Below, piece by piece: positions 6,178 to 40,254 of a stretch of DNA of 40,278 nucleotides. The notes under the pieces were generated by a model. That model had not been told where the DNA came from, did no database searches, and saw only the letters and a list, made by a program, of their open reading frames with translations. The DNA comes from a virus. Lineage: Duplodnaviria; Caudoviricetes. How positions within the stretch are numbered: the stretch's first letter is position 1; each line of letters starts with the position of its first letter. The stretch spans positions 1 to 40,278 of IMG/VR virus record IMGVR_UViG_3300035042_000148; one strand, written 5' to 3'. The position numbers were made by a program, and so were the translations under genes.

Positions 6178-6600
6178 CTATAGGCCAATCTTAGCGCGCT
6201 CGACGCGGCCCCAGGCGCGCACGTCTTCTACAAAGGTTTGATACTCAGTAACCAGGTCCGATTCACCAGGCTCAAACACATAGGCCCCCTGCAACACTCC
6301 AACCGCGATACGCGTCAGATACATCTCATCCTCGGCGCTGTATTTGGCCCGAATCTGCTCCTGCATGCGCTGATTAATCAGGCGACAGTGCGGACTCGAT
6401 GCTTTGATCTGCTCGCGCAACTCCGGGGTTATCGTCACCGGTTCGACAGTGATCTGATTCGGCTGCGGCGGCAAATCATCTGGACCGCTGATATACGTGT
6501 AGCCGTCCTCAAGCGTACACAGCTCTACGACATCGCTTCCTTGGGCATTATAAGTTGTATAGTCGTCGGACTCTTTTCGATAGCGGTAGATTTTTGCCAT
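6178..6600 (-). CDS. Hypothetical protein, possible tail-fibre assembly chaperone
   Basis: RBS GGAGAG before the ATG at 6600; start overlaps the 3' end of the RT gene; helical C-terminus. Confidence 0.55.
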   Translation of the reverse strand: MAKIYRYRKESDDYTTYNAQGSDVVELCTLEDGYTYISGPDDLPPQPNQITVEPVTITPELREQIKASSPHCRLINQRMQEQIRAKYSAEDEMYLTRIAVGVLQGAYVFEPGESDLVTEYQTFVEDVRAWGRVERAKIGL

Positions 6601-7552
6601 TATCACTCTCCCTGATGGTTTTTGCCAAGTGCGGCATGCTGGCCGTGCCTTTTGCGTGTCCGAGTATAGACACAACGGTATCTACATCGCCCCGCTTTAA
6701 GGCTCGGCGGAATCGATAAAGACTGTGCTTGCGCAACAAGCGACGATCGGCCCAAGTTCGCCAGCCTACGAAGTTGACGCCGCGACACGTACGCGCAATG
6801 GTAGTTTTTGAGAATTCAAGGTTGAGGTTGTCGGCGATAAACTCTTTGATGCGCTGCCTGATCGCCACGGCCGCATCTCGAGCGAGACCTATCAGCACCA
6901 GGTCGTCCACATAGCGTGCGTAGTGTCTGATTTTTAGATCGCGCTTGATGTAATGGTCAAGCGGGTTGAGGTAGATCAAGGCATAGAGCTGACTGAGTAG
7001 GTTGCCTATGGGGATCCCCAGAGGCCCATCCTGCTCTGCGTACATCATCATGACGTTAAGCAGGCGTTCGTCTTTGATTTTTCGCTCGACCAGCACGCGC
7101 AAAATGCGGCGATTGATCCGGTAGAAAAACTTTCGGATGTCCAGCTTGAGGACATAAGTTTCTGGATCGCATCTACGCAATGCATCCTGGACATGCAGGC
7201 TCGCTCGATGTGTCCCGTATCCGATGCGGCAGGCAAAGGACTCAGGGGCAAAGATACGTTCAAAAATAGGTCCTATCATCCGATAGATGGCGTGCTGCGC
7301 TACACGATCGCGGAATGCCGGAGCGGATATCAGTCGAGGCTTCGGCTTCTGCACCCAAAACTGCCAATACGGCCGTGGTCGATAAAACCCGGAGTGGATT
7401 TCATCGTAAAGGGCCGCCAGGTTCCCGCCAAGATTGGTTTCAAACTCAAAGGTGGATCGTCGGTTGCGCTTGCGCTTGCGCGCGTCGAGATAGGCCTGAT
7501 ACAGGTTGTCTCGCGTGAAAACCTTATCAAACAGCTGGCCATAGCGCTTCAT
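6548..7552 (-). CDS. brt: DGR reverse transcriptase
   Basis: KPRLISAPAFRDRVAQHAI, LKLDIRKFF, GIPIGNLLSQ, YARYVDD and GVNFVGW motifs; likely start MKRYGQLF after GGAGG; adjacent to TR and avd. Confidence 0.96.
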   Translation of the reverse strand: MKRYGQLFDKVFTRDNLYQAYLDARKRKRNRRSTFEFETNLGGNLAALYDEIHSGFYRPRPYWQFWVQKPKPRLISAPAFRDRVAQHAIYRMIGPIFERIFAPESFACRIGYGTHRASLHVQDALRRCDPETYVLKLDIRKFFYRINRRILRVLVERKIKDERLLNVMMMYAEQDGPLGIPIGNLLSQLYALIYLNPLDHYIKRDLKIRHYARYVDDLVLIGLARDAAVAIRQRIKEFIADNLNLEFSKTTIARTCRGVNFVGWRTWADRRLLRKHSLYRFRRALKRGDVDTVVSILGHAKGTASMPHLAKTIRESDNGKNLPLSKRVRRLYNL

Positions 7553-7684
7553 ACGGGCGCCTCCGGTCTTCGGCCCTGCGGGCTTACCAAAAGGAGGCGG
7601 GTCATCGATTTCGCGTGACGCTGGACGGTACATCCCTGTCGTATCCACTGCGCACTTGCTGTGCCTTGAGGTAGAGAAGAGAGT

Positions 7685-7795
7685 CGGCCCGGAGCCCCAC
7701 GTTGTTGTTGGAGTTCGTCCGGTTGTTGTTCAGGTTCAAGCCCCAAACGCCCGCATTCGAGCCGTTGTTCCAGTTGTACGACGCGATCGGGCACA
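7685..7795 (-). ncRNA. DGR template repeat (TR)
   Basis: 111 bp with 12 AAY codons; matches 8259-8369 except at 13 positions, all A on the minus strand; lies between avd and RT. Confidence 0.96.
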
Positions 7796-7814
7796 TGTAG
7801 AGGCACCGCCCATT

Positions 7815-8216
7815 TTACCATCTGTGCATTTCCTTCATTTTGACTATCCATCCGCCGATCATGCGGCCGAGTTCATCACACAGGTCGCCGATGTGGGTGT
7901 AACGCTTCTGCTCCAATTTTTCCGGATGTTCATCCTTGCGGCCATCGCGATACCGGAAATAGCCGAGCTCAAACGCGAGGAACAATTGCATGCGCAAGCG
8001 TTCGTGGGCTATGTCGAGACTGGATAGCGTGGTCTTTTTCGTGTAACGCTTTTCGCCCTCGACCACCAGATCGAACACCTCATAGGCGGTATTCCGAATG
8101 CGATTCGCCAGGGCGTATTTCTCCGATTTCGGAAAATGGTTGAGATAGCCGTTCAAGCGCTGAATAAAAATAACCAGCTTGCGCACCAGCTGAGCTGCTG
8201 CATGTATATTGCTCAT
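7815..8216 (-). CDS. avd: DGR accessory variability determinant (four-helix bundle)
   Basis: 133 aa, basic; FPKSEKYALANRIRN and ELGRMIGGW motifs; position between target and TR. Confidence 0.92.
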   Translation of the reverse strand: MSNIHAAAQLVRKLVIFIQRLNGYLNHFPKSEKYALANRIRNTAYEVFDLVVEGEKRYTKKTTLSSLDIAHERLRMQLFLAFELGYFRYRDGRKDEHPEKLEQKRYTHIGDLCDELGRMIGGWIVKMKEMHRW

Positions 8217-8238
8217 CTTAAAAGCCCTTCGCTACCGC

Positions 8239-9831
8239 TCAGGCCCCAGGGTAACAGGCGGCCCGGAGCCCCACGTAGTAGCTGGAGTACGCCCGGGAGT
8301 TGTACAGGTGCAAGCCCCAAACGCCCGCAGTCGAGCCGCTGTACCAGCTGTACGACGCGATCGGGCACAGTTCGTTGCGGATATAGCGGTAAAAATAGTC
8401 CGTACCGAAAAGGTTTGTGCCCGATGTCGACTGTCCATCCGTAAGCGGGAGCCCAAGGCAGGTGCGACGCCAGCTATCTCCGGATACATCCTCAGCCAAA
8501 ACCTGATTGGCTCCGTCGCCCATTTTCATCGAGATGGCACCGTCAGCTAAGACCAGTGGCAGCGCATCCATCATGGCGGCGGCTCCGGTAGCGCCCCAGT
8601 GGTCGGTGGCTGCTGAGTTCCCGGAGGTGAAATCGCGCATTGCGGTCGCTTCCTTGGCCGCGTAAAACGTGCCGTAGGTCAGCGATCCACCGCTGGTATA
8701 GGCTGCGTAGCCGGTGCTGTCCACACCATCGAGGGTGATATTGTCGGCATCAACCACAGTGACCGTAAATATCCTGTCGTTCAGCTCGGTCATGCCGTCG
8801 ATGCTGGTCACAAGGGCCTGCTGCCCCGTAACCAACCCATGCCCGACAACCTCAATCTGGCACGGATTGGCCTGGCTGGCAGCGCTGATCGATTTGCTGG
8901 TCGCGATACATGTCAGGCCGATCTGGATCTCGTACATCAGGCCATTGACGTCGGCGACACCGCAGGCCTGGCCGTTGTGCGTGGTCTTTGCAAACGGCAC
9001 TCCGGATCCGGTTTTGCCGCAGTTGCTGTACCCGTCAGATTGATAGCTGACGGTGGCATCATTGGCGTCTCCCAGGGCGTTATTATTGCAGCCCTTTGGA
9101 TAGTTCTCCGCGCCGGATGCGTCGTACCATGCACAATATGTTGTCGATGTAGCGGCCTGGCCATGCGCAAGAGACAGCAGGGCCAGCGCAGCCCATTGAA
9201 AACGGCTGGCGCAGTGGAAAATACTGTCTGCGTTAACCGCGCCATCCACCCCGTCGCGGGCGCGACAGGCGTTGAGTGCCTCAAAATACGCGTTGCTGCC
9301 ACACGCCGTCAGGTCGGCGATGGGGTTGTGGTCAGAGTGCGTCGATATTGGCAGACCACCGGCTATGGACGACGCAACGTACCCGGAACCCAGAGCGTTT
9401 TTGCTGCACATAAATTTATCGATGAAAAAGCCGGCTTGCTCCACGCCGCCATCGATGAAGGCTCGGTGCAGGGCGTAGCCTGCAGCCTCGGCGGCGGCGC
9501 GGGTGGTGTATGTCTTAACGCCTTCGACGTCGATGCTGTTGACCCCGTGGGCGCCGTAGGTGGGGTTGCTGGCGTGGGCGATGCGATAATAAAATTTTGG
9601 CACCCAGACCATGATGGACCCGTCGGCGTATTTGTAGTTGCCGTAGTTGGCGTGCGTCGGGTCGGTGTAACCGTAGAGCGGCGTCATCCCATCAGGGAGT
9701 GCCTCGGGCGGAGCTACGCCGACACCGAACCCGGCCGAGCCTGCCGTGCCGATGGAATTGAGCACGCCAATGAGCGACCCGACGGCGGCGTCAATTTGCG
9801 CGCCGGTGTATTGAGATTGATAATAAGACAT
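8239..9831 (-). CDS. DGR target protein; probable receptor-binding protein (Mtd-like, C-type-lectin fold)
   Basis: C-terminal VR ending VGLRA; IMVWVPKFYY, GFFIDKF and GVADVNGLMYE motifs; located in the tail module. Confidence 0.88.
   Translation of the reverse strand: MSYYQSQYTGAQIDAAVGSLIGVLNSIGTAGSAGFGVGVAPPEALPDGMTPLYGYTDPTHANYGNYKYADGSIMVWVPKFYYRIAHASNPTYGAHGVNSIDVEGVKTYTTRAAAEAAGYALHRAFIDGGVEQAGFFIDKFMCSKNALGSGYVASSIAGGLPISTHSDHNPIADLTACGSNAYFEALNACRARDGVDGAVNADSIFHCASRFQWAALALLSLAHGQAATSTTYCAWYDASGAENYPKGCNNNALGDANDATVSYQSDGYSNCGKTGSGVPFAKTTHNGQACGVADVNGLMYEIQIGLTCIATSKSISAASQANPCQIEVVGHGLVTGQQALVTSIDGMTELNDRIFTVTVVDADNITLDGVDSTGYAAYTSGGSLTYGTFYAAKEATAMRDFTSGNSAATDHWGATGAAAMMDALPLVLADGAISMKMGDGANQVLAEDVSGDSWRRTCLGLPLTDGQSTSGTNLFGTDYFYRYIRNELCPIASYSWYSGSTAGVWGLHLYNSRAYSSYYVGLRAACYPGA
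8259..8369 (-). repeat. DGR variable repeat (VR)
   Basis: Encodes CPIASYSWYSGSTAGVWGLHLYNSRAYSSYYVGLRA at the 3' end of the target gene. Confidence 0.96.
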
Positions 9832-9832
9832 G

Positions 9833-10045
9833 TCATACCTCCCGTTGGATAGCAAACGGCCGCCCTGCGGAGGTCGTTAGCCGTTCGTGACCGCCGATGG
9901 TGTCAGCGGTCAAAAAAAGATTACCCGTGGCGAAATCCCGTACCTGCATCGCCACCGCTGGTGACGCCTCGGCCAGATAGCGCAGAGACAACCCTACAGG
10001 ACTCCCCAGGTGGATCGCGTCTTTACTGCCGCCGAAAAGCTTCAT
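9833..10045 (-). CDS. Hypothetical protein
   Basis: 70 aa; tightly packed between neighbours, with a TGATG overlap at its start. Confidence 0.55.
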   Translation of the reverse strand: MKLFGGSKDAIHLGSPVGLSLRYLAEASPAVAMQVRDFATGNLFLTADTIGGHERLTTSAGRPFAIQREV

Positions 10046-20602: not shown

Positions 20603-22189
20603 TTATTGCTCAGGCTGACTGGCCAGCTTCGCCAGGTCGAACCCGGGCAGATCGGCCATGGTCAGTCCGAGTTCTTTCATCAACTCGCGCTCCTTGGCTA
20701 TCTGCCGCAGCTCCTCTTCGTAATCCTTGCCCTGTTCGGCATACCAGTCGGCCATGGTCATCATGTTGGAGACGAGAGCCTCCTTGCCGGAGGCGATCTC
20801 CTTGACCGGATCGATATGGCCGCGCTTGGGCGGGGTCCAGGTGGCGTTTGTCCACAGCGCTTTGGCGCGATAGAAATCGGGCGCGCCGGCAGGCAGATGG
20901 ATACGTCCGCGCAACCAGGCCTCTTCGAAAACCATCTCCCACACCGGCTGACAAAAATGATTGACCAGCCAGTTCTGATAAAACTGAATCAGCCGCCAGG
21001 CCTCCAGCAGCGCGGCCCGTGCGGAGGAGTAATTCGTCTTGCTGAAATCCTTCGACACCACTTCATAGGGCAAACCGCATGCGGCCCCCATGGCGCGCAG
21101 CAGCGTCTCGACAAACACCGGGAAGCTGTTGCCGGGACGATTGTTGTTGCCGAGGATGTGGGGCTTTTGATTGAGCGAACCGTAAAGGACCTGACCCGGA
21201 TGGTATTCCTTGACCTTCTGAGTTCCCCCGGATGCCGTGGGAGTATCGGTCGTCTCTCCGGTATACTCCCCCGGTTCTTCCCCGTCAGGTGTCTCGATAA
21301 AAACCGGGAATGACGCGGCCAAGATGGCCCCAATCACTTCGAAATCCATGTAATCGTCATAATCACGGAAGAGCTTGATCACCGGAGCCAGCGCAGAAAC
21401 TCCGCGCACCTGCTCGGCATCTTTGCGATGGAACCCGTGGAAGATGCCACGGCGGTGTCCCCTCCACGCGGGGATCTCCCGAAAATGCTGGCTGGTCAGG
21501 GTGGTGGTGAGATGGCCGTCGTCCGGATCGGCGACATAGTAACGAAGCCGCTCGCTATGCGGGCCGAGACGAATGCCGTCGCGGATATCCTTATCGCTGA
21601 AAAGATTATGAGGAGTGCGCAGGCGGCGCGGATCGAGCACCTGGATGGCGAGATCGAAGGTTCGGCCAGGGCCGGAGACATTGACGGGCAGATTGAGATA
21701 CTCGCCGCCACCTATCATGTTGCGGATGGTTAGATACTGAATATCGGAAAAATGATCTTCACCCTCGGCATCCGCCTGGCGGGACCATTCCCAAAAACAC
21801 CACTCCACCTGCTCGGCGATTTCGGCGGCGGCCTCTTCGCTAATGCCAAGCCGCTTGAAGGCCGGCTTGCTCTGCGGGAGAAGACCCGGCCCGCCGACCG
21901 TAGACATGGCGGTTGAATCAACAATGCTTGTTGCGTGGGGATTGTTGGCGATCAGATCGGCGGAGCGATCGGAGATGGTGAGACGTTCGCGCTCTTCGGA
22001 GTAGCGGTTGAGCCGCCGGACAAACCAGTTACCGAGGCTGCCCTTGCGGCCCGCTCCGGTACGGGATACCCCGCCCGCCATAAAGCCAAGAGCCGTGCGG
22101 GCCTTGGCCCGACGCAAGGCGCGGCCAGGGGAAAAATAGCCGATGGCGCGATCCAGCGCATTCATCTGCAGGAGAGCCTTGCGCTTCAT
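20603..22189 (-). CDS. Portal protein, lambda family
   Basis: QVRGVSALAP, DFSKTNYSSARAALLE and HIDPVKE motifs. Confidence 0.93.
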   Translation of the reverse strand: MKRKALLQMNALDRAIGYFSPGRALRRAKARTALGFMAGGVSRTGAGRKGSLGNWFVRRLNRYSEERERLTISDRSADLIANNPHATSIVDSTAMSTVGGPGLLPQSKPAFKRLGISEEAAAEIAEQVEWCFWEWSRQADAEGEDHFSDIQYLTIRNMIGGGEYLNLPVNVSGPGRTFDLAIQVLDPRRLRTPHNLFSDKDIRDGIRLGPHSERLRYYVADPDDGHLTTTLTSQHFREIPAWRGHRRGIFHGFHRKDAEQVRGVSALAPVIKLFRDYDDYMDFEVIGAILAASFPVFIETPDGEEPGEYTGETTDTPTASGGTQKVKEYHPGQVLYGSLNQKPHILGNNNRPGNSFPVFVETLLRAMGAACGLPYEVVSKDFSKTNYSSARAALLEAWRLIQFYQNWLVNHFCQPVWEMVFEEAWLRGRIHLPAGAPDFYRAKALWTNATWTPPKRGHIDPVKEIASGKEALVSNMMTMADWYAEQGKDYEEELRQIAKERELMKELGLTMADLPGFDLAKLASQPEQ

Positions 22190-22422
22190 CGGGCAGGCCT
22201 CCCGATGACGGTAACCGAAGCGCGGCGACCGAGCAAGCGGGCTTTTTCCTTGCCGAGCCAGTCGAGCGTGCGGCGGATCTCCGGCAGGTCGGCGCTTGTC
22301 CAGGTGCGATCGGAGCCGCCCGGCGTGGACATGCGCACACTTTGACCGCCGGCACAAGCCTTGAGGGCCAGTTTATATTCGGCGATCTGCTCTTCGATCT
22401 CTGTGAGGGTAAATACAGACAT
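22186..22422 (-). CDS. Head completion protein (gpW-like)
   Basis: 78 aa just upstream of portal; GQSV...RTWTSADLPEI motif. Confidence 0.75.
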   Translation of the reverse strand: MSVFTLTEIEEQIAEYKLALKACAGGQSVRMSTPGGSDRTWTSADLPEIRRTLDWLGKEKARLLGRRASVTVIGRPAR

Positions 22423-22461
22423 GCCGCGATGATTTCAAAAATATCGCGGCATGTCATTTAC

Positions 22462-22488
22462 GTGGTGGACGAGGTTGACGTGGTTGAC
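22462..22488. promoter_or_regulatory. Three tandem 9-mers upstream of the head operon
   Basis: GTGGTGGAC GAGGTTGAC GTGGTTGAC in an intergenic gap. Confidence 0.5.
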
Positions 22489-22521
22489 AAAATATTTAGA
22501 ACAATCGCATTTTTTCTAAAT

Positions 22522-22755
22522 CTATGCCCCATCATCGGTCTGCCGACGCTTGTAATCCTCTATCGAATCGATATAGAGCCGCAGCCCCCTCCCGTTGCCG
22601 ACAAAGTACCCCTTAATATCTGTACGATGATAAAGGTTGTAGATATGTTGCCGCGAGGGAGGATGCTCAGGGCAAAGATGATAACGGGCTTGCTCGACAT
22701 TGCATGTCGGGCGGCGGTCACCCTGGGCATAGGGTATCGGAGTACGGTATGGCAT
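22522..22755 (-). CDS. Small winged-HTH (excisionase-like) DNA-binding protein
   Basis: SRQHIYNL...GRGLRLYIDSIEDY; RBS GGAGGAG. Confidence 0.65.
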   Translation of the reverse strand: MPYRTPIPYAQGDRRPTCNVEQARYHLCPEHPPSRQHIYNLYHRTDIKGYFVGNGRGLRLYIDSIEDYKRRQTDDGA

Positions 22756-22756
22756 A

Positions 22757-24745
22757 TCATCTCCTCCTGTTGAACCATCCGGGACGATTGCGTCCGGAAG
22801 GTTGAGCACTGAAACGGTCATTGTTATCCGATGCCGGCTGAGCCTGGGGCGTTTCTATTTTGGGCTTTTCCTCTTCCTTGCCCCGCGCTTGCATGGCCAG
22901 GGCCTCCGCCAGCTTGGCATAGTTCGGGTTGAGGATCTGCCGAACGGCCATGTTGCCGACACGCACGTCCAGGGCCTCATTGCGCTGAAATCCGTCACGC
23001 AGAACCCAGACGGTTTCCAGTTTGCCGGTTTTGCGGTTCTTTGCCTTTTTGGGGCGCTCGGCGCAGAGCATGCGGAAATACTCGAAGTCGTATCCCATAT
23101 GCCAGTGGCAGCAGCGAGGGCCCGACTCGGTCGCCGTCAACCAGGACATCAGCAGATCCTTGCCGGTATCGACACCAAGCTCATAAAACGGCACCTTGTA
23201 TTTTCGGCTCTTGCTGGGCTTGCGAGGCACCAGCGGCAGCCCCCTGAGGTTGCTGCCCTTGTGCGCGATATACCTGCGGGACCGTCGGACGAATTTTGCC
23301 ACCATGTCGGCACGATAGCCGAGGTCAACCCCGAGGCGAACGATGGATAGCTCTGCGCCGGACTCATGGATATATACGGTCTCCTGCGCCCAGTCGTGCA
23401 GCTGGTCCCATACTTCGTCCTTGCTCGTGTCGCCATGAAAGACGCGATACTCGATGCTCCAACTCTGGTGCCCTTCGCCCCAAGCGACAGCCTCGACCTC
23501 GATGCGGTTGAGCTGCACGTCCGCATCGGCCGTAATCACCACAGCTGCCAAGGGCACCTTCCAGCTTGCGCCTATCGGCCAGTAATCCCGTCGACGTTCG
23601 TAAAGCTCTTTTTCTCCGGTCAGCTCGCCTTCGGTGTCTTCCGGAACCGGCAGGCCGAGGCAATCGTTATAGTAATACTGCAGATTGGCGTCCGACGGCT
23701 CGACCAGCGTCATCACATAAGCCTGGGCGATCTTGTGGAACGGCACGAACCGCGAGATCAGCGGCGGGATGTGCGCCCACACGCGTGAGGCGCGATCGAT
23801 AGGAACGCCTCCAGGCCGGGGCCGCCAACCGTGCCATACCTGCGGCGGATCGTGTAGGGCAGCCGCCTGCCGCACGGCTTCGTTCCGGTCTTCTTCGTCC
23901 CACTTAGCTTGACAGTGTGGGCACTCGTACCAGGCGCTGCCCTTGTCGGCCAACTGAGCAGGATCGATCACGCCATCGGGCCAGCGGACGTGCGCGGCAT
24001 CCATGATATGGGCCTCGCCGCAAGAAGGGCATACCGGCCAGAAATCGATAAGGACCTGGGCGAGCTTCTGAGCCGCCCAGATCCGTCCCTCCTCGACCGA
24101 TGCCGTACATGCCTCGATGATCTTGTAGCTGTCCTCAAATGCCCTGAGGCGCGCACGGGCCTTGCGAATTGCGGACTCAGGCCACAGATCCACTTCATCG
24201 AAAAAGCCATATCGGATCGGCTTGGAGGCCAGACGCCCCTCGGACTGCGCCCAGCCGAGATAGGTGATCATGCCGTTACGCAGCCGAATGCGCTTTTTGC
24301 TGATATCGTCGGGGTTCCCCGTCTTGATCCGGCGCAGCGACGGGGTGTTGTCGATCATCGGTATCAGGCGATCGTCGAGCGTCTCGGTACCGGTATCGCG
24401 GTCCTGCATGACGATCAGCGAGGGGCCGGGATCGTGAACAGCGTTACCCCCCCAGCAGGTATGCATGAAGTCGGATTTCGCCGACTGGCTGCCGCCAGGC
24501 AAAAACAGTTCGCGCAAATGTTCCTGGCAATAAAGATCGAGCAACCCCTTGAGATAGGGTGTCACATCGCCGTCATACGGGCCTGGCATGGAGCTGACCG
24601 CAATATAGCGCTCCCCCTGGGCCCACTGGCTGAAGGTCTCATCCTCCTGAGCACGGAAGACCTGCTTTTCCCCCTGCAGCAGCTTGAACTTGCGCGGCGG
24701 CGGGGATGGAAGCCAGTCGTATGTTTCGGCGAGGCTTGTCGTCAT
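22757..24745 (-). CDS. terL: Terminase large subunit, lambda gpA family
   Basis: TPYL, GGSQSAKS (Walker A variant), FFDEVD, CPSC/CPHC, ADVQLNRIE and RNEALD motifs; ATG overlaps the intI stop (ATGA). Confidence 0.93.
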   Translation of the reverse strand: MTTSLAETYDWLPSPPPRKFKLLQGEKQVFRAQEDETFSQWAQGERYIAVSSMPGPYDGDVTPYLKGLLDLYCQEHLRELFLPGGSQSAKSDFMHTCWGGNAVHDPGPSLIVMQDRDTGTETLDDRLIPMIDNTPSLRRIKTGNPDDISKKRIRLRNGMITYLGWAQSEGRLASKPIRYGFFDEVDLWPESAIRKARARLRAFEDSYKIIEACTASVEEGRIWAAQKLAQVLIDFWPVCPSCGEAHIMDAAHVRWPDGVIDPAQLADKGSAWYECPHCQAKWDEEDRNEAVRQAAALHDPPQVWHGWRPRPGGVPIDRASRVWAHIPPLISRFVPFHKIAQAYVMTLVEPSDANLQYYYNDCLGLPVPEDTEGELTGEKELYERRRDYWPIGASWKVPLAAVVITADADVQLNRIEVEAVAWGEGHQSWSIEYRVFHGDTSKDEVWDQLHDWAQETVYIHESGAELSIVRLGVDLGYRADMVAKFVRRSRRYIAHKGSNLRGLPLVPRKPSKSRKYKVPFYELGVDTGKDLLMSWLTATESGPRCCHWHMGYDFEYFRMLCAERPKKAKNRKTGKLETVWVLRDGFQRNEALDVRVGNMAVRQILNPNYAKLAEALAMQARGKEEEKPKIETPQAQPASDNNDRFSAQPSGRNRPGWFNRRR

Positions 24746-25752
24746 AAAAGGCGATCCAGAGGACTGCAAACGGCATTCGGTTGTTGCATGACATGGGTAT
24801 AGACCATGGTGGTTTCAAGCTTCTTGTGACCGAGGAGGGATTGCACTGTTCGAATATTTTCCCCGCCCTCAAGCAAATGAGTCGCAAAGCTGTGACGAAA
24901 GGCGTGCGGCGTGACGTGTTTGACAATTCCGGCCTTGCGGGTGGCCACTGCGACCGCCTTTTGCACCGCCGTTTCGTGTAAATGGTGGCGGCCCTGTTCT
25001 CCTGTCCGTCTGTTTACCCAACTGGACGTTGCCGGAAAAACATACTGCCAGCCCCATTCGAATGGAGCCCTTGGATATTTGCGGGGCAGGGCTCCGGGCA
25101 AAGGGGCCGCGCCAAAACCGTCCCGAAGATCCCGCTCGTGAATTTCTTTGACCTTCTGCAGGTGCCTTTTGAGACGGTCCACAATCATACATGGCAAGGG
25201 AACGACTCGGTCTTTATTACCCTTGCCCTCGCGAACGACAATCTGCATCTGTCCGAAGTCGACATCCTGAACGCGGAGTTGCAAAGCCTCGACCTTATGT
25301 CGCAAACCGGCACCGTACATGATGGCGCAGATCAGCCAGTAATCACCGCGAAGGTAATCCAGCACGGAAACAACCTCATCTCTGGTCATGACCACAGGCA
25401 AACGTTTGGCGCGTTTAGCCCGAAGAGCATCGATCTTGCCAAGGTTAATGCCAAGCACTTCCTGGTACAAAAACTTCAGAGCATTAAAGGCAACGCTTTG
25501 AGTTGACGCCGACACTCTCTTTTTAACCGCCAGGAAGGTTAGATACTGTTCGATCTCGTTTTCCGCCATATCTTGAGGATGCCGCTTTCCATGAAAAAGG
25601 ATGAATTCACGGCAGTAATTGCAATAGGCGCTAGCGGTAACATCGCTGCGGCGCAAAACCCGGCATTTTTCACGGAGGCGGTCCAACAATTTCGGCGGCT
25701 TTTGCGGACTGCGTTGGATGGGATAGGCGTTTGTTTTTACAGAATTTTCCAT
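24742..25752 (-). CDS. intI: Integron integrase (IntI-type tyrosine recombinase)
   Basis: N-terminal domain (FHGKRHP...VSASTQ); catalytic GLR, GKGNKDR, HAFRH, LGH and YTH; IntI-specific insertion LPGALPRKYPRAPFEWGWQYVFPA...RHH; C-terminal SPLD; RBS AAGGAGG. Confidence 0.92.
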   Translation of the reverse strand: MENSVKTNAYPIQRSPQKPPKLLDRLREKCRVLRRSDVTASAYCNYCREFILFHGKRHPQDMAENEIEQYLTFLAVKKRVSASTQSVAFNALKFLYQEVLGINLGKIDALRAKRAKRLPVVMTRDEVVSVLDYLRGDYWLICAIMYGAGLRHKVEALQLRVQDVDFGQMQIVVREGKGNKDRVVPLPCMIVDRLKRHLQKVKEIHERDLRDGFGAAPLPGALPRKYPRAPFEWGWQYVFPATSSWVNRRTGEQGRHHLHETAVQKAVAVATRKAGIVKHVTPHAFRHSFATHLLEGGENIRTVQSLLGHKKLETTMVYTHVMQQPNAVCSPLDRLL

Positions 25753-25779
25753 AAAAACCTCCTTCCTGCTAAGATGCCG

Positions 25780-25805
25780 GTTTGGGTGGTTAACAGTCGT
25801 TGTTT
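25780..25805 (+). other. Candidate attI site (crossover G|TTGTTT at 25799/25800)
   Basis: GGTGGTTAACAGTC-GTTGTTT just upstream of intI; GTTGTTTTGC is the exact complement of GCAAAACAAC at the cassette's attC. Confidence 0.65.
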
Positions 25806-25807
25806 TG

Positions 25808-25933
25808 CTATTCGTTCTCGCAACTTTCGCAGACACACTCAGGGCAGAGAACAGCCCCGCATTTTTCACATTCATGAGCATCTTCTTCCGGGAAATCGCA
25901 GCCACAATTTTCACACAATGTCGTTATGTCCAT
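25808..25933 (-). CDS. 41-aa Cys-rich acidic microprotein (cassette 1; absent from the ORF track)
   Basis: MDITTLCENCGCDFPEEDAHECEKCGAVLCPECVCESCENE*, four CxxC; RBS GGAG; fills the attI-attC interval. Confidence 0.7.
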   Translation of the reverse strand: MDITTLCENCGCDFPEEDAHECEKCGAVLCPECVCESCENE

Positions 25934-25958
25934 TTTCGTCTCCGTAGGATGCAGCGCA

Positions 25959-26016
25959 AAACAACCAGTCAATCAACACGGACTCGTAAACTCGCCGGTT
26001 ATCGGCATCGTTAAAC
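25959..26016 (+). other. attC site (58 bp)
   Basis: R'' AAACAAC, L'' CAATCAAC, ACGG...CCG, L' GTTATCG, R' GTTAAAC (GTTRRRY); the bottom strand folds with extrahelical G and T. Confidence 0.85.
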
Positions 26017-26571
26017 AACAAACACCCCTCGACGATGCAGCTCATATACAATCAGAGCTTCATGCAGAGCGTCATCGGCACCACGGTGCAATTCAACATA
26101 TTCTTCATCCGGGAAAAGCTCAGACCATGCTTCCTCGACTTTTGGCCATTTGTATGAACCGTAGCGCAGAGGGTAAAGCTTGCAGATTGGAGTGGCCAGC
26201 AGCATGGGGCAAGGGAGCTTTTTACCAAACCGGACACCCCGACTTTCCAAAAAACCAAAATCGAACGACCGATTATAGGCAGTCGCACCCAAAGGATGCT
26301 TATCAATGATCTCCTGAATATCTGGGAGCAAATCATGAAGCATCGGCCCCTGCCGCACCTCTTCAGCCGTGAGAGTTGAGTTACGGAATATCCAGCCCAT
26401 TGGGGCCTCAAAATGTTGATCATTTAAGGTGGTCTCCTGGCAGACCGTGTTAAAAACCGTATCGACATTTCCAGTGCTGAGGTCGAGAGACACAATACCT
26501 ACCTCGACAATACTTCCACCTTCTTTTTGAAACCCTGTAGTCTCTATGTCTATGACTAAAATTTTCTCCAT
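26011..26571 (-). CDS. DEDDh 3'-5' exonuclease (DnaQ-like), cassette 2
   Basis: VIDIETTG, AYNRSFDFGFL and HRGADDA motifs; stop codon lies inside R' of attC; visibly more AT-rich than the phage backbone. Confidence 0.9.
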   Translation of the reverse strand: MEKILVIDIETTGFQKEGGSIVEVGIVSLDLSTGNVDTVFNTVCQETTLNDQHFEAPMGWIFRNSTLTAEEVRQGPMLHDLLPDIQEIIDKHPLGATAYNRSFDFGFLESRGVRFGKKLPCPMLLATPICKLYPLRYGSYKWPKVEEAWSELFPDEEYVELHRGADDALHEALIVYELHRRGVFVV

Positions 26572-26607
26572 TCCATCATCCTCCGAATCCCTGCTGGTCG
26601 GTAACTG

Positions 26608-26739
26608 TTATCTTCCCATCCGCCGCGCCTCGCGCATGGCGGCGTTCCACGTCTCTACGTCGTACCGTTTCGACAACGGCACCAGATAGCGGCTATCGTA
26701 ATGTTTGACGATATAGGCAATGAGTTTCTCAGCCGGCAT
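26608..26739 (-). CDS. 43-aa hypothetical protein
   Basis: MPAEKLIAYIVKHYDSRYLVPLSKRYDVETWNAAMREARRMGR*; fills the gap; absent from the ORF track. Confidence 0.5.
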   Translation of the reverse strand: MPAEKLIAYIVKHYDSRYLVPLSKRYDVETWNAAMREARRMGR

Positions 26740-26742
26740 TAT

Positions 26743-27216
26743 TCATCCCCCCCCCCTGTAAGGCATTGCTCCGAAAGGCCCGACGATCCTGTCCACCGGT
26801 TCCAAAACCAGTTCGAACTGTTCGCGCATCCTCTGCAGAACCGTCACAGGCACGCGGTGCAGGTTGCCGAACTGCTCCCCGCAGGTAACGATGCGGAAGG
26901 CGGTGCCATGCTGCTCGGCAAGCTCACGATATGCATCCATCTCACTCAGCTCAGCGAACACATCACTCACCACCACGGACTCTCCCCGCGCCAACGCAAA
27001 ATCGGTCATAGTCCACACCCAGCGACAAGCCTGGTCCCAGATCTGGGCATCGAACCGGTAGCGGCCCTGCGTATCGCAAAACAGGTGGTCCGGTTCATAA
27101 TGGAGATGGCCGGAAAACTCGCGGCGCGCCCGAGTGCTTTTGCCGCTGCCTGGAAGGCCGCGAATAATCACAAGTTCGGGCTGTAGCGGCCTCCGGCCGG
27201 TGTCAGAATCGATCAT
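26743..27216 (-). CDS. P-loop kinase (AAA_33-like)
   Basis: LVIIRGLPGSGKST, VVVSDVF and HRVP...LQRM motifs. Confidence 0.85.
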   Translation of the reverse strand: MIDSDTGRRPLQPELVIIRGLPGSGKSTRARREFSGHLHYEPDHLFCDTQGRYRFDAQIWDQACRWVWTMTDFALARGESVVVSDVFAELSEMDAYRELAEQHGTAFRIVTCGEQFGNLHRVPVTVLQRMREQFELVLEPVDRIVGPFGAMPYRGGG

Positions 27217-27265
27217 GGGAGGAATTCTCCTTTCGTCGCTTAAAGGTTTTTGAAACCGGAGGCCG

Positions 27266-27493
27266 CTACAGCCTCGACTGAACTTCCACCAATTCAACCG
27301 AGCCGGGTACGTAGAGCCCGGATGGAGACAAGGTGCCGGGCCCGGATATCCTGAGCTGAATGGCGATACCGCAGGCCGGACATTGATACGTCCCTCGCGT
27401 AAGCTCGCCATAAATGGGAGTCGAGCAGAATGCGTCTATATCATCAATGTGTCCGCACTTACCGCAAGACATCAGCATCCAGGGCATGATCAA
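27266..27493 (-). CDS. Zinc-ribbon protein
   Basis: CGKCGH...CPACG; start overlaps the upstream stop. Confidence 0.65.
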   Translation of the reverse strand: MIMPWMLMSCGKCGHIDDIDAFCSTPIYGELTRGTYQCPACGIAIQLRISGPGTLSPSGLYVPGSVELVEVQSRL

Positions 27494-28185
27494 TCCTCCT
27501 CGATTTCTTCGAAGCCGGCGATCGGTCGGCTGTAGTTGTCCATCGCCTTGCGAAACATGCCGAGCATAAAGGAGATCAACTCCGGCGATTTCTGAGGATC
27601 TCCATCGACGATCTTGATGATGCGCCCGGAGCTGGAGCGGGCAACAGCCTCAAGGTAGGTACGCAGGTTGATGGCACGTTCCGCCAGTTCAATCTCGACC
27701 TGGTTGCGCGGTATAAGCTCTCCGGTTGCCGCCCTGCGCTTGAGTTCACGCATCCTGCGATCCTCGCGGATCCGGAGCATCTCCTCCCGTGCTTTTTCTT
27801 CCTGCAAGTTCTGGGTCTTGTGCCCAGACGTACCGTCCTTACGTTTCAGGTAGGCTCTGGCATATTCCATGGCCATGGTTTCAGAGATAGTGCCGTCATC
27901 ACGGAGCTTGAGCTTGCCCTGATCACGATGCTCATAGGCGGATGAGTCGGAGACTTTCCACCCTTCGTCCTCGAGGGCAGCAACCATCTCGGGAATATTT
28001 CGATACACCATCTCGCCGACATCTTCCGCCTGGGCGTTCCGAAATACCTCGAGATCCGCCTCAGCCTTTTTGTAGGCCTTACGGTTTTTTACCGTAGGGC
28101 GCAGCCGGGCAGCCTCAAATGCTGCGTCACGCTCAGCAATGAGTCGTTCCTCTTCGGCGGCTATGGCGGTGTTCAGATCGGCCAT
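27490..28185 (-). CDS. Probable terminase small subunit (Nu1-like)
   Basis: wHTH-like middle, coiled coil, then GELIPRNQV typical of Nu1-like TerS; lies between cos and terL. Confidence 0.7.
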   Translation of the reverse strand: MADLNTAIAAEEERLIAERDAAFEAARLRPTVKNRKAYKKAEADLEVFRNAQAEDVGEMVYRNIPEMVAALEDEGWKVSDSSAYEHRDQGKLKLRDDGTISETMAMEYARAYLKRKDGTSGHKTQNLQEEKAREEMLRIREDRRMRELKRRAATGELIPRNQVEIELAERAINLRTYLEAVARSSSGRIIKIVDGDPQKSPELISFMLGMFRKAMDNYSRPIAGFEEIEED

Positions 28186-28205
28186 GCTCTAACTCCCTTG
28201 ACGTA

Positions 28206-29366
28206 TCAATCGCACTTTGTTTGCGGGCTCCCATACGGCATCACGACTTCGAGCCGCTCATCGAAGCCGGTATGATCCACCGGTACCAGGAGCATGGCCG
28301 GACTGTCGCCGCCATATTTGATAAAGATCTCGCCATCGAAAGCCTTGAGGGCTTTTACCAGATAGCTCGAATTCGCCATCAAGCTGTACCCTTCACCACC
28401 GATGCATGGAACGCTTGCCTTGGCCACGCCGTTAGCTCCCAGGGCGGACACTTCGAGACCTTCGCCGTGCAACGACTCAGGGGCCTCGATCGAGACGCTT
28501 CTTGACTTGCCTTCGTTAACCACGGCTACATCCTCGGTGGCCTCCGCAAGAGACGACGCCTCAACGTTAAAAAATTGGTCGTGATCAGAGGGAACGACAC
28601 GGCGGTAGGCAGGAAAATCGCCGCCGATCAGACGCACGGTAAGATCGAAACCACCAGCCTCGAAATACACCTGGCTGCCCCCTGCCTCATCCTCGGTGTA
28701 AACACAGATCCCGGTTTCTATGCCGGATAATATCCGTACCGCTTTGGAAGGGATCAAAAACCCGGACAGGAGGTCAACGCCGTCCACCACCAACCCGGAG
28801 ATAGACAGTCGATGCCCGTCCGTGGCGACGGCTGTAAGACGACCATCCTCCTGGCACAAATAAACGCCACACAGGTTATTTTTCTGATGATCCTGGCACA
28901 TGGCATGGTTCACAGATCGCAGCAGGCGAGGCAAAATGCCAGGAGCAAAGTGACAGACAGCGGGACCCCAGTGGCAATCTGGATCGGGGAATTCGCACGC
29001 TGGGAAACAGGCAATTTCGAAATGCCGGTCACCACCCTCGATAACCAGGCGCATGTCATTGTGCAGCGTAAAAGTCACGTCGCCATGCAGTCTGGAAAGC
29101 ACGCCCTTGAGAAGCTCGGCCGGCACGCAGGCATCTCCTCCGGCCCCGGGTATATCTGCCTTAAATTCTGTCACGGCCCTCACTTCAAGATCCGTTGCGA
29201 CGAACTGAACGGCTCCACGTAATAGAACATCGAGCTTGATATTTTCCAGTATGGGAATCGTACTGCGCTTGTCGACAGCTCCAAGCACGCGGGAAAGCGC
29301 CGCTGAAACGGTGTCAACATGAGAAGAGAAAGACCACTTGTTTTCGTTGCTTGCTTTTTTCGTCAT
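28206..29366 (-). CDS. dnaN: DNA polymerase III beta sliding clamp homolog
   Basis: KRSTIPILENI, VATDLE, AVATDGHRL, RLIGGDFPAYRRVVP and VVMP motifs; 386 aa. Confidence 0.92.
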   Translation of the reverse strand: MTKKASNENKWSFSSHVDTVSAALSRVLGAVDKRSTIPILENIKLDVLLRGAVQFVATDLEVRAVTEFKADIPGAGGDACVPAELLKGVLSRLHGDVTFTLHNDMRLVIEGGDRHFEIACFPACEFPDPDCHWGPAVCHFAPGILPRLLRSVNHAMCQDHQKNNLCGVYLCQEDGRLTAVATDGHRLSISGLVVDGVDLLSGFLIPSKAVRILSGIETGICVYTEDEAGGSQVYFEAGGFDLTVRLIGGDFPAYRRVVPSDHDQFFNVEASSLAEATEDVAVVNEGKSRSVSIEAPESLHGEGLEVSALGANGVAKASVPCIGGEGYSLMANSSYLVKALKAFDGEIFIKYGGDSPAMLLVPVDHTGFDERLEVVMPYGSPQTKCD

Positions 29367-29427
29367 GAGATCCTCGCTTTATAATTGGAGCAGCAGGCCC
29401 TTCACCCCGCCCCGCCGCGCGCCCTTT

Positions 29428-29841
29428 TTATCCCTGGGCTGTACGGAGCTGATCAGATGATGCCGTGTGACCTTCCAGACCTGCAGCATCCCAGATCCGG
29501 ATCCGTTCGAGCATGTCGCGGATGCAGCCGGAGCTCTTGCTGAGACTTGCCGCCATCTGTGCCGTGGTCCGCCCGGCTTCAACCAGTAGTAACAACTTGA
29601 CCAATTCCTCCGGCTGCCAGCTCGTTTCGTGGATCGGCGTGCCCGAGGTCGGCCGGAAGGTATGCCCGCAGCCGGCGCAGTACACCTTGCGGAGATCCTG
29701 CCAGGCCGCCAGCGCCCGGGTCCCGGTGATCGGCGACTGGCACGACGGACAAACAGGCCCGGACTGGAGGTATCTGCGCTGCATCCACTCCCAGGCCGCC
29801 AACCTGGTCACCACGGCAAGAAGCTCTTCAGTCTCGATCAT
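29428..29841 (-). CDS. Zinc-ribbon + HTH protein (resembles the IS1595 transposase N-terminus, no DDE domain)
   Basis: GPVCPSC...YCAGCGHTFRPTSGTPIHET followed by the HTH-like TTAQMAASLSKS. Confidence 0.65.
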   Translation of the reverse strand: MIETEELLAVVTRLAAWEWMQRRYLQSGPVCPSCQSPITGTRALAAWQDLRKVYCAGCGHTFRPTSGTPIHETSWQPEELVKLLLLVEAGRTTAQMAASLSKSSGCIRDMLERIRIWDAAGLEGHTASSDQLRTAQG

Positions 29842-29913
29842 CGTTGCAACTCCTTGTATTTTCAGCATCTTCCAAAATTCCGGACCTCGAAAAACTCAAA
29901 ACTCACACGTTTT

Positions 29914-29959
29914 CTGCGCGCTTGCTCGCCCGCAGTGGGCCACCCCGTGGGAAGGACCC
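29914..29959 (-). other. Predicted cos site (cosQ + cosN)
   Basis: Minus strand GGGTCCT (identical to lambda cosQ), 17 nt, then CTGCG-[GGCGAGCAAGCG]-CGCAG dyad around a 12-nt core. Confidence 0.7.
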
Positions 29960-29966
29960 GCGACCA

Positions 29967-30596
29967 TCACGCGAGACCAGCCTGCTGCATACGCCAGGAC
30001 AGCTCATGCTCGAAGGTGCGCTCGAGGTAATCCATCAGCCCTTCCTCGAAAGCATCGGCCGTCGCGGCCTCGGCAAACATACTGGCCGGGGAGATGGCGG
30101 CCTTGATCTGCACGGGGTAGCGGCTCTTGCCCTTGCGCCTCATCACCATCATGTGGCCACTGCTGGCCTGCTGCATGAACGCGCCCGACAGTTTCGTCTT
30201 GCGTCCCTTGACAACCTCGACCCGCACCCCCTGGAACTTGGAGCGCCGTTTATTCTCCCTGGTCTTGGTGCGCGTGATCACACGATTGCGGGCATACTGC
30301 TTTGCACCGAAATAACTCAGCGAGAGCGACATGCCGCGGATGGTTATCTCGAAGGATTCGTAGTGCCGGCCGCCACGACTGCCAACCCGGATCCGGATCT
30401 TCTTATCCAGGTCGCGCTTCTTGATGTTCCACTTCTTTCGGATCTCCGTACTGAGGAGGGTCCGCGCCTTGCGACGGACCTTGCTCATGGTGCTGTAGAC
30501 AGCCTGCTTCACGAGCTCCTCCATCTCCCCGACGGCACTGGCCAGAGCATCTTCGAAGATATCCGCGTCGAACCATATCATTTGATTTTTAGCCAT
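29967..30596 (-). CDS. Lambda gpZ-like minor tail protein
   Basis: Highly basic 209 aa; IRKKWNIK, GVRVEV, GAFM and RYPV motifs. Confidence 0.7.
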   Translation of the reverse strand: MAKNQMIWFDADIFEDALASAVGEMEELVKQAVYSTMSKVRRKARTLLSTEIRKKWNIKKRDLDKKIRIRVGSRGGRHYESFEITIRGMSLSLSYFGAKQYARNRVITRTKTRENKRRSKFQGVRVEVVKGRKTKLSGAFMQQASSGHMMVMRRKGKSRYPVQIKAAISPASMFAEAATADAFEEGLMDYLERTFEHELSWRMQQAGLA

Positions 30597-30606
30597 CGAG
30601 CACCAC

Positions 30607-30897
30607 CTTGTCCGGCTTGTCCGGCTTTGTCCGCCCTAAAAAACAACAAACCGGACAGAAAATTAAAAACGATTTCGGTTACTTATCTTTACTTGTCCGG
30701 CTTGTCCGGAAAAATAACAACTCCCAAGGCTGATTTGACTAAGCCCCCATATACACGCGCACGCACGCGCATACGTAAGGGAGTTGTAAGTTAGCCGGAC
30801 AAGCCGGACAAATGCACCCAACTTGCCGTTATCAATAAGTTTTCCGTGTCCGGCTAACACATTTTTTGACCGGACACAACCGGACAAGCCGGACAGC
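30607..30897. repeat. Iteron cluster (CCGGACAAG-like, both orientations); putative replication origin
   Basis: About a dozen CGGACA/TGTCCG cores in a gap directly downstream of the helicase. Confidence 0.7.
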
Positions 30898-38957: not shown

Positions 38958-40046
38958 ATGGCGAAAATATTTCACAAATGGGCATGCCCCTCCCCTAAAT
39001 GCCGCCGCTGGTACCGCACCCCAGGCACATGCAAATGCGGCGCGGAGCTTATCGAGCGCAGTGAATATTCCGTCGACTACCGCGATGGAGATGCAAAACG
39101 CCGCATCGAGGATCTCGACACCACAAGTAAGCGGGTAGCCGAACGCGAGTTGGCCATAAGGATTGGAGAGGCCAGCAAAGGCAAGAGCCGTCCTCAGCGC
39201 CGCACCCTCGTTTCCATCTGCCAGGAATACATGGAAACGAAGAGCATCCACAACGCCGACGGCGGCCGCCGCGATGGGCATTCGTTTCAACACGTTCTCG
39301 AACATTTCAAAACCCGCACTCTCGAGAACATTTCCCAGCGCGAGATCCAGGCCTACGTCAACGCCAGGCGCAAGAAAAAGGCCGCTGCCGGCACAATCGA
39401 AAAAGAGGTAGGGCTTATCAAGCGCGTATGGAAATATGCCCGCACAAACAAAATGGTGCATCATTTCCCCTTCGAGGAAATCAAGATCCCAGGCAAAAAA
39501 ACAGCTGCCATGCGCCCGATCAGCGTCAAGCAGGAGGAAGCCCTCTGGGAAGCCCTGCCGGCATCGTCACTGCCCTACTACAAATTTGTAGCCTATACCG
39601 GCTGCCGCATGTCAGAGGCCCTGAACCTCACCTGGGACGATATCGACTGGCAAGAGAAGGTCGCCTGGGTATCCTCCGGCAAAAACCGGCACGGTGAGGT
39701 GGAGCTCCAACCGGTCTTCCTGGGCAAAAAAGCCCTGGCGATCCTCAAAGATCTGCACCACAGAAAGCTCTCGGATACTTGGGTCTTCATCAACCCCGTC
39801 ACCGGAGAACCCTACAAAAACCCCAAGAACACCCTACGGCGTGCCATTAAAAAACTAGGCCTGCCCATGCGCTCAGTTCACGATCTAAGGCACCTTTTCG
39901 GATCCCGCCTGGTGGAAAGCGGCATCGACAACGTCACTGCCAGCATCCTGATGCGACACAAGGACATCCGCATGATGCGACGATACACACACCTGTCCAG
40001 CGGACACCTGCGAAAGACCCTCGACAAAGCCCAGAAAAAAGACTAA
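38958..40046 (+). CDS. int: Phage integrase (tyrosine recombinase)
   Basis: TGCRMSE, HDLRH, MRH and Y (RRYTH); adjacent to att/tRNA. Confidence 0.95.
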   Translation: MAKIFHKWACPSPKCRRWYRTPGTCKCGAELIERSEYSVDYRDGDAKRRIEDLDTTSKRVAERELAIRIGEASKGKSRPQRRTLVSICQEYMETKSIHNADGGRRDGHSFQHVLEHFKTRTLENISQREIQAYVNARRKKKAAAGTIEKEVGLIKRVWKYARTNKMVHHFPFEEIKIPGKKTAAMRPISVKQEEALWEALPASSLPYYKFVAYTGCRMSEALNLTWDDIDWQEKVAWVSSGKNRHGEVELQPVFLGKKALAILKDLHHRKLSDTWVFINPVTGEPYKNPKNTLRRAIKKLGLPMRSVHDLRHLFGSRLVESGIDNVTASILMRHKDIRMMRRYTHLSSGHLRKTLDKAQKKD

Positions 40047-40179: not shown

Positions 40180-40254
40180 TGGTGGGCGTTACTGGGATCG
40201 AACCAGTGGCCCCTGCCGTGTGAAGGCAGTGCTCTCCCGCTGAGCTAAACGCCC
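40180..40254 (-). tRNA. tRNA-Val(CAC); includes att core 40180-40225
   Basis: GGGCGTTTAGCTCAGCGGGAGAGCACTGCCTTCACACGGCAGGGGCCACTGGTTCGATCCCAGTAACGCCCACCA folds as a cloverleaf with anticodon CAC and a CCA end. Confidence 0.97.

Follow-up and report, generated by a model that had tools for sequence, protein, structure and literature searches.

The window analysed here is the whole of the viral record IMGVR_UViG_3300035042_000148 (Caudoviricetes; 40,278 nucleotides), and it contains a prophage of ~38 kb bounded by a 52-nt direct repeat, one copy of which lies in a tRNA-Val gene. Between the genes for the small and large terminase subunits (terS and terL) it holds an element with the parts of an integron: an intact integron integrase gene (intI), an attI recombination site, a single gene cassette and the attC site of that cassette (Table 1). 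The gene inside the cassette is placed on the strand opposite to attC and in line with terS, intI and terL, a feature absent from the first-pass annotation of the same DNA. We consider it probable, from the comparisons presented below, that the element is a complete integron built into the terminase cluster, in which IntI would insert and remove cassettes and the backward genes would be read together with intI on a terS-to-terL transcript.

Table 1. Positions of the integron parts and of other prophage features in the window
Feature	Position	Strand	Remarks
intI, integron integrase, 336 aa, intact	24742..25752	(-)	TIGR02249; ATG at 25752
attI	25770..25805	(+)	crossover G/TT at 25799/25800; 47 nt from intI start codon
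Cassette 1, 211 bp	25800..26010	(+), attC polarity	ends at G/TT; recurs in L283/L284
Cassette gene, 41-aa cysteine-rich peptide	25808..25933	(-)	GGAG ribosome site; inverted relative to attC
attC, 58 bp	25959..26016	(+)	covariance model; R'' 25959-25965, R' 26010-26016
DEDDh exonuclease gene, resident	26011..26571	(-)	PF00929; stop codon within last R' box
AAA_33 ATPase gene, between terS and array	26743..27216	(-)	no cassette by attC model
Conserved 75-aa gene after terS	27266..27493	(-)	directly before terL in integron-free relative L009
terS, terminase small subunit	27490..28185	(-)	phrog_57, E 4e-7
terL, lambda gpA-type terminase large subunit	22757..24745	(-)	family match gpA
Integrase of the prophage itself	38958..40046	(+)	TIGR02249 40 bits, so not IntI
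Prophage end repeat	2243-2294, partner 40180-40231	.	partner inside tRNA-Val; attL/attR

The first-pass annotation had called the integrase an intact protein of the IntI type, and the model comparisons confirm an IntI-family integron integrase as opposed to XerC or XerD. The protein matches TIGR02249 with 398.2 bits over all 315 model positions (cut-off 265), scores 138 and 131 bits against the XerC and XerD models, well under their cut-offs, and finds its best Protein Data Bank match in the Vibrio integron integrase 2A3V (E 1e-75). The catalytic residues R151, K177, H283, R286, H309 and Y318 are all kept, the IntI-specific insertion is present at about residues 221-241, and a quick 123-row tree places the protein within the IntI part, the Xer rows lying outside. 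A longer, 390-aa open reading frame (ORF) version of the gene begins at a GTG upstream of the ATG. The stop codon of intI and the start codon of terL overlap by 4 nt (ATGA) and no clear ribosome site precedes terL, from which we infer that translation of terL is coupled to that of intI.

The attI site, proposed earlier as a candidate near 25799, is delimited by comparison with relatives: positions 25770-25801 are conserved in the loci L003, L006 and L007, and divergence begins right after the GTT of the crossover. Because the first rule-based scans overlooked the attC of the window, we trained a covariance model on 47 rule-picked sites of integrons from chromosomes, plasmids and Vibrio, none of them of the phage family; its E-values are rough. 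The model gives three matches in the window, the best being the 58-bp site (24.4 bits, E 0.0044; the next has E 1.9), which has the R'', L'', L' and R' boxes and whose alignment contains the extrahelical G and T described before together with one additional bulged T. Folding by minimum energy was not discriminating and was dropped as an attC diagnostic. The site resembles one in a host, L207:8262-8319, and its orientation relative to intI is the canonical one, not that of the inverted-integrase type. The distance from crossover to intI start is 47-88 nt in 14 phage loci as against 106-287 nt in 9 host loci, all hand-picked; the short spacing in phages would fit a platform without its own promoter, and a crude sigma-70 scan, itself at chance level, gave no match near attI.

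The exact 10-bp complementarity of the two cassette ends reported previously (25799-25808 and 25956-25965) is present, and it is typical of phage and host cassettes: 10 of the 40 phage cassettes compared and 16 of the 78 from hosts have complementary runs of at least 10, and the R-box scar with its four variable bases matching is found in 25 of the 40 (shuffled mean 1.9) and 62 of the 78, respectively. The cysteine-rich 41-aa peptide likely binds zinc. The range of 24742..26616 originally given for the integron stands for the integron parts and fails for the exonuclease gene enclosed in it. Considered as a second cassette, that gene was rejected, since no attC lies upstream of it and just 1 of 34 homologous loci has an attC nearby; it is a resident gene that forms the distal anchor of the array, and the same anchor recurs at locus L249.

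Backward genes are the rule in phage cassettes, as three polarity tests show, in all of which attC matches below 24 bits and duplicates were excluded. By the longest ORF, host cassettes are 112 forward, 7 reverse and 22 unclear (n = 141), while the phage set has 5 forward, 34 reverse and 28 unclear (n = 67) and the other viral IntI loci have 13, 35 and 46, respectively (n = 94). A ribosome site and start codon on the reverse strand at R'' were found in 40/66 cassettes of the phage set, 46/88 other viral and 11/141 host cassettes; a forward stop codon at R'' in 18/66, 23/88 and 108/141. On the same cassette DNA, 28 of 89 reverse ORFs matched PHROG families as against 0 of 85 forward ORFs, with the caveat that a neighbouring gene is possibly included in some unbounded first cassettes. 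The matched cargo comprises seven DNA methyltransferases, two PAPS-reductase-like proteins and one queuine tRNA-ribosyltransferase-like protein, besides a DHH phosphoesterase, an HNH nuclease and a radical SAM protein, and the reverse ORF fills the cassette bodies almost end to end. The window's cassette gene likewise does not run in the attC direction and away from intI, as it would in a canonical array driven by the promoter Pc. When 187 phage and 145 host cassette bodies, a small sample, were compared among each other, five matches were phage-phage (one of them a duplicate contig), five host-host and none phage-host; no copy of the body of cassette 1 turned up in 251 genomes of the likely host class, where the sole match is 32 nt of the attC part.

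Movement of cassettes is apparent from the relatives, whose cargo changes exactly at the crossover. Locus L003 (IntI 93%, TerL 96%) and L006/L007 share the attI of the window up to G/TT and carry other sequence beyond it, so that first cassettes differ behind the same attI between the window, L003 and L006/L007; the same holds for L012 compared with L015. At L249, the other end of the L003 contig, additional cassettes precede the exonuclease anchor in a longer array. In the integron-free relative L009 (TerL 91%), terS, the 75-aa gene and terL are contiguous. The 211-bp cassette itself recurs in L283/L284 (99.5% over 220 nt), cut at both ends at the same G/TT and placed between two attC sites amid replication and recombination genes; no further DNA is common to these loci and window positions 22001-30000, and their array also carries the first cassette of L003. 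Locus L285, where the contig ends, has the first 138 nt of cassette 1 at a host-like attI (3840-3935) that lies directly upstream of an unrelated terS-terL-portal operon, with no intI within 4 kb. Among the contigs of eight metagenome runs, other sequences join the cassette at 25797 (X1, X2, X3, X8, X9), exits to other sequences occur at 26013 in X3 and X9, and X3 has cassette 1 on a separate contig; the contig branch points are at, or at most 4 nt from, both crossovers, and the branching contigs may stem from other phages of the community. By these sequence comparisons, cassettes are shown to be exchanged at G/TT points between related and unrelated phages. The hotspot for gene capture that the first-pass annotation proposed is supported by the variable gene content of relatives, and the window's own IntI may carry out the capture. 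None of the three conditions that would have refuted that annotation holds: the protein passes the IntI model, the attC is recognised by the covariance model, and gene content differs between relatives. A further locus, L287, has the cassette gene with no attC, its contig beginning 10 nt inside the cassette, and was left unused. The two ends of one contig, L003:136-222 and L249:4424-4527, carry almost identical cassettes, but the attC sites in front of them differ, which suggests that array variants coexist within one population.

For the count of terminase relatives, 38 loci whose TerL is at least 49% identical were merged into 28 groups, of which 7 have intI or a stub of it, 12 have attC upstream of terL and 15 have either. 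Clusters of attC sites lacking an integrase gene (CALIN-like) occur in L013, L049, L055 and L063; the window itself is not of this kind. In L024, a relative lacking intI, terS and terL are separated by a reverse transcriptase gene (8704-9567). The entire intI-attI-array segment was also considered as a single attC-bounded mobile unit, a reading that gained no support: comparison with L009 reveals no GTT junction at the intI/terL border, and homology of near-identical intI copies extends a few bases into the following gene.

In the tree, window IntI groups with other viral and prophage rows in a clade of 12 (support 95), which includes none of the host chromosomal rows, the latter being ~30 high-scoring loci on long contigs of 128 positive genomes and hence an undersampled host side; an IntI above the cut-off was detected in these 128 of the 251 genomes. 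The attI sequence goes along with its IntI clade. Purifying selection on phage intI is shown by ratios of nonsynonymous to synonymous substitution (dN/dS) of 0.02-0.16 in six phage pairs (window versus L003, 0.066; terL, 0.077). Near-identical intI genes precede unrelated terminase modules, which points to exchange of intI between phages. When 70 of the best 80 viral IntI loci were scanned, terL proved to be the main downstream gene at 16 of them, portal at 4 and a further integrase at 12; all 30 of 30 hand-picked phage-linked IntIs exceeded the cut-off, whereas the total of 564 relatives cannot be counted as IntIs, one pattern being general. Two chromosomal prophages, L227 and L240, have intI upstream of terL, and only 9 of 50,697 GenBank phage records match IntI.

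The surrounding prophage agrees with the earlier placement of the element between putative terS and terL, both now assigned to families, and with the claim of a separate integrase for the prophage itself. Its head genes are of the lambda type, with a gpA terminase and a lambda portal, and the integron sits mid-prophage, at least 15 kb from each end. Since the nearest named relatives of the terminase (56-59%) are in Geobacter and Deltaproteobacteria assemblies, we infer a Desulfuromonadia-type host; nearly the full stretch is present in two metagenome runs, both from oil fields, from which it may derive; no RNA run was among the matches listed. The same prophage contains a diversity-generating retroelement (DGR; 6548-9855) with a reverse transcriptase (6548-7648), Avd (7815-8216) and a 114-nt repeat pair (7682-7795 and 8256-8369, 88%) whose second copy ends a tail gene. 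Upstream of terS, the phage encodes a beta clamp of DNA polymerase (28206-29366; TIGR00663 above cut-off), and after the primase-helicase genes come nested inverted repeats with CCGGACA/TGTCCGG units (30609-30895), a possible origin or packaging site. A perfect 18-bp inverted repeat (27179-27196 and 27256-27273) has its arms on either side of the AAA_33 gene's start and ribosome site; its pairing is kept in L249 despite base changes in both arms, L009 has only one arm, and the repeat is likely an RNA hairpin, the attC covariance model having ruled it out as an attC. A stretch of 90 bp (26594-26683) containing most of a 43-aa ORF is missing in runs X5, X6 and X7.

Recombination of single-stranded attC is an established mechanism in bacterial integrons, and the integron proposed here could use it as follows. 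Prophage induction would yield one transcript reaching from terS through the small resident genes, the cassette genes and intI to terL. IntI would hence be made during lytic replication, at a time when single-stranded DNA lets attC fold, and could recombine the folded site into attI. New cassettes would enter beside intI, at the end farthest from the promoter; with terL still to be transcribed beyond them, all cassettes would be expressed regardless of rank, in contrast to bacterial arrays with their Pc gradient. Methyltransferases, proteins resembling PAPS reductase or queuine tRNA-ribosyltransferase and many small unknowns make up the cargo, which probably protects the phage against host restriction. 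Phage arrays are short and often have lost intI, and platforms of this latter kind would depend on IntI supplied in trans. Several observations weigh against the proposal. Unaided folding gave no attC fold for the window site (z -1.98; 11 of 200 shuffles equally stable), and the 41-aa peptide has no PHROG match. The longest-ORF test left 28/67 phage-set and 46/94 other viral cassettes unclear and found 13/94 of the latter forward. Phage IntIs are spread over several clades instead of forming one. The intI of the closest relative (L002/L003) has a 73-bp deletion, seen also in runs X5, X6 and X7, and only stubs are left in L006/L007 and L020; among the 28 terminase relatives, 8 have attC without intI and 13 have neither, 3 of these with less than 1.5 kb of upstream DNA.

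The loss of intI from many arrays and its deletion in close relatives lend themselves to another explanation, the main rival to an active integron of the phage itself: the cassettes would be real and moved mostly by host or helper IntI in trans along with homologous exchange, the phage's own intI being an optional passenger. The host-like attI at L285, the frequency of IntI in likely host-class genomes and the near-identical intI before unrelated terminase modules all agree with such a scenario. The strong purifying selection on phage intI, the association of attI sequence with IntI clade and the well-supported clade devoid of host chromosomal rows argue against it, and we consider it unlikely overall. 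Morons are frequent in head operons, and the cassettes might be lysogen morons with promoters of their own, whose reverse orientation merely spares the terminase operon; methyltransferase cargo could indeed work in lysogeny. That the reverse ORF spans nearly the whole cassette body, starting at R'', leaves this improbable, and the minus strand has no sigma-70 match from 29248 to intI, albeit in a weak scan (4 found as against 3.1 by chance). Least probable, and largely refuted, is the accidental acquisition and passive carriage of a host chromosomal integron fragment, for which prophages of Vibrio anguillarum offer a published precedent (PMC9892861) and to which the likeness of the window attC to a host site would also conform. 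Host cassettes run forward and window-type cassettes backward, the cargo is of phage type, none of the 187 phage bodies compared matched any of the 145 host bodies, the cassette body was not found in the 251 host-class genomes, and the mid-prophage position with intI overlapping terL is ill-suited to a chance fragment.

Integrons have hitherto been regarded as devices of bacteria and as rare, accidental freight of phages. In the phage group described here an integron is lodged among the packaging genes, and its inverted cassettes travel between phages that are not related to one another; should it prove active, it would be a dedicated gene-capture device for phages, likely for anti-restriction genes. 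It shares its prophage with a DGR, and with 47 nt between attI and intI and a single 211-bp cassette the platform is compact and easy to assay. A viral origin of integrons has been proposed speculatively (PMC4792948), and cassettes of phage genes bear on that proposal as well as on how cassettes are first built. We suggest more tentatively, seeing somewhat less than an even prospect that it holds in full, that temperate phages run parallel integrons of mirror polarity, with inverted cassettes from a pool largely apart from that of the hosts, traded among unrelated phages, expressed lytically and reshuffled in replication, IntI being borrowed by phages devoid of the integrase. If so, phages would be active cassette builders, offering a testable route to cassette origin.

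Phage morons and accessory-gene hotspots place variable genes amid conserved packaging genes in head operons; unlike these, the variable genes of the window are attC-bounded and swapped at a precise crossover, next to a recombinase dedicated to the task. The element shares with canonical integrons, of class 1 as well as those on the chromosomes of Vibrio and other bacteria, as described by Cury et al. 2016 (PMC4889954), the IntI insertion, an attI upstream of intI, the G/TT crossover, the R-box scar and an attC polarity divergent from intI. That source has cassettes mostly transcribed opposite to intI, whereas in the window the cassette genes run against attC and in the direction of intI; the location in a phage operon, the overlap of intI with terL, the 47-nt attI-intI distance and the phage-type cargo differ as well. 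Having intI and cassette genes in the same direction is a likeness to the inverted integron-integrase group (Treponema and others), which, as described in PMC4889954, flips intI relative to attC, while the window flips the genes inside the cassettes and keeps intI and attC canonical. Host integrons of the inverted-integrase type, with the array downstream of intI, were seen at L211, L221, L223 and L239. The initial statement that integrons are typically chromosomal or borne on plasmids and transposons needs the addition that phage integrons, though rare, have been published: Qi et al. 2023 (PMC9892861) counted, in 10,705 genomes, 3 complete integrons, all of them host chromosomal or class 1 pieces, besides 1 In0 and 17 CALINs, and showed that phage attC sites recombine with IntI1. 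The window resembles their set in having integron parts in a temperate phage, and their set likewise has methyltransferase cargo; the main text of that study includes no terminase-embedded or inverted-gene type, and none was found in the literature searched, in which subscription journals are thinly covered. Integrons in phages are known as such, and what appears, by its sequence, to set the present one apart from published phage integrons is the layout of inverted genes embedded in an operon.

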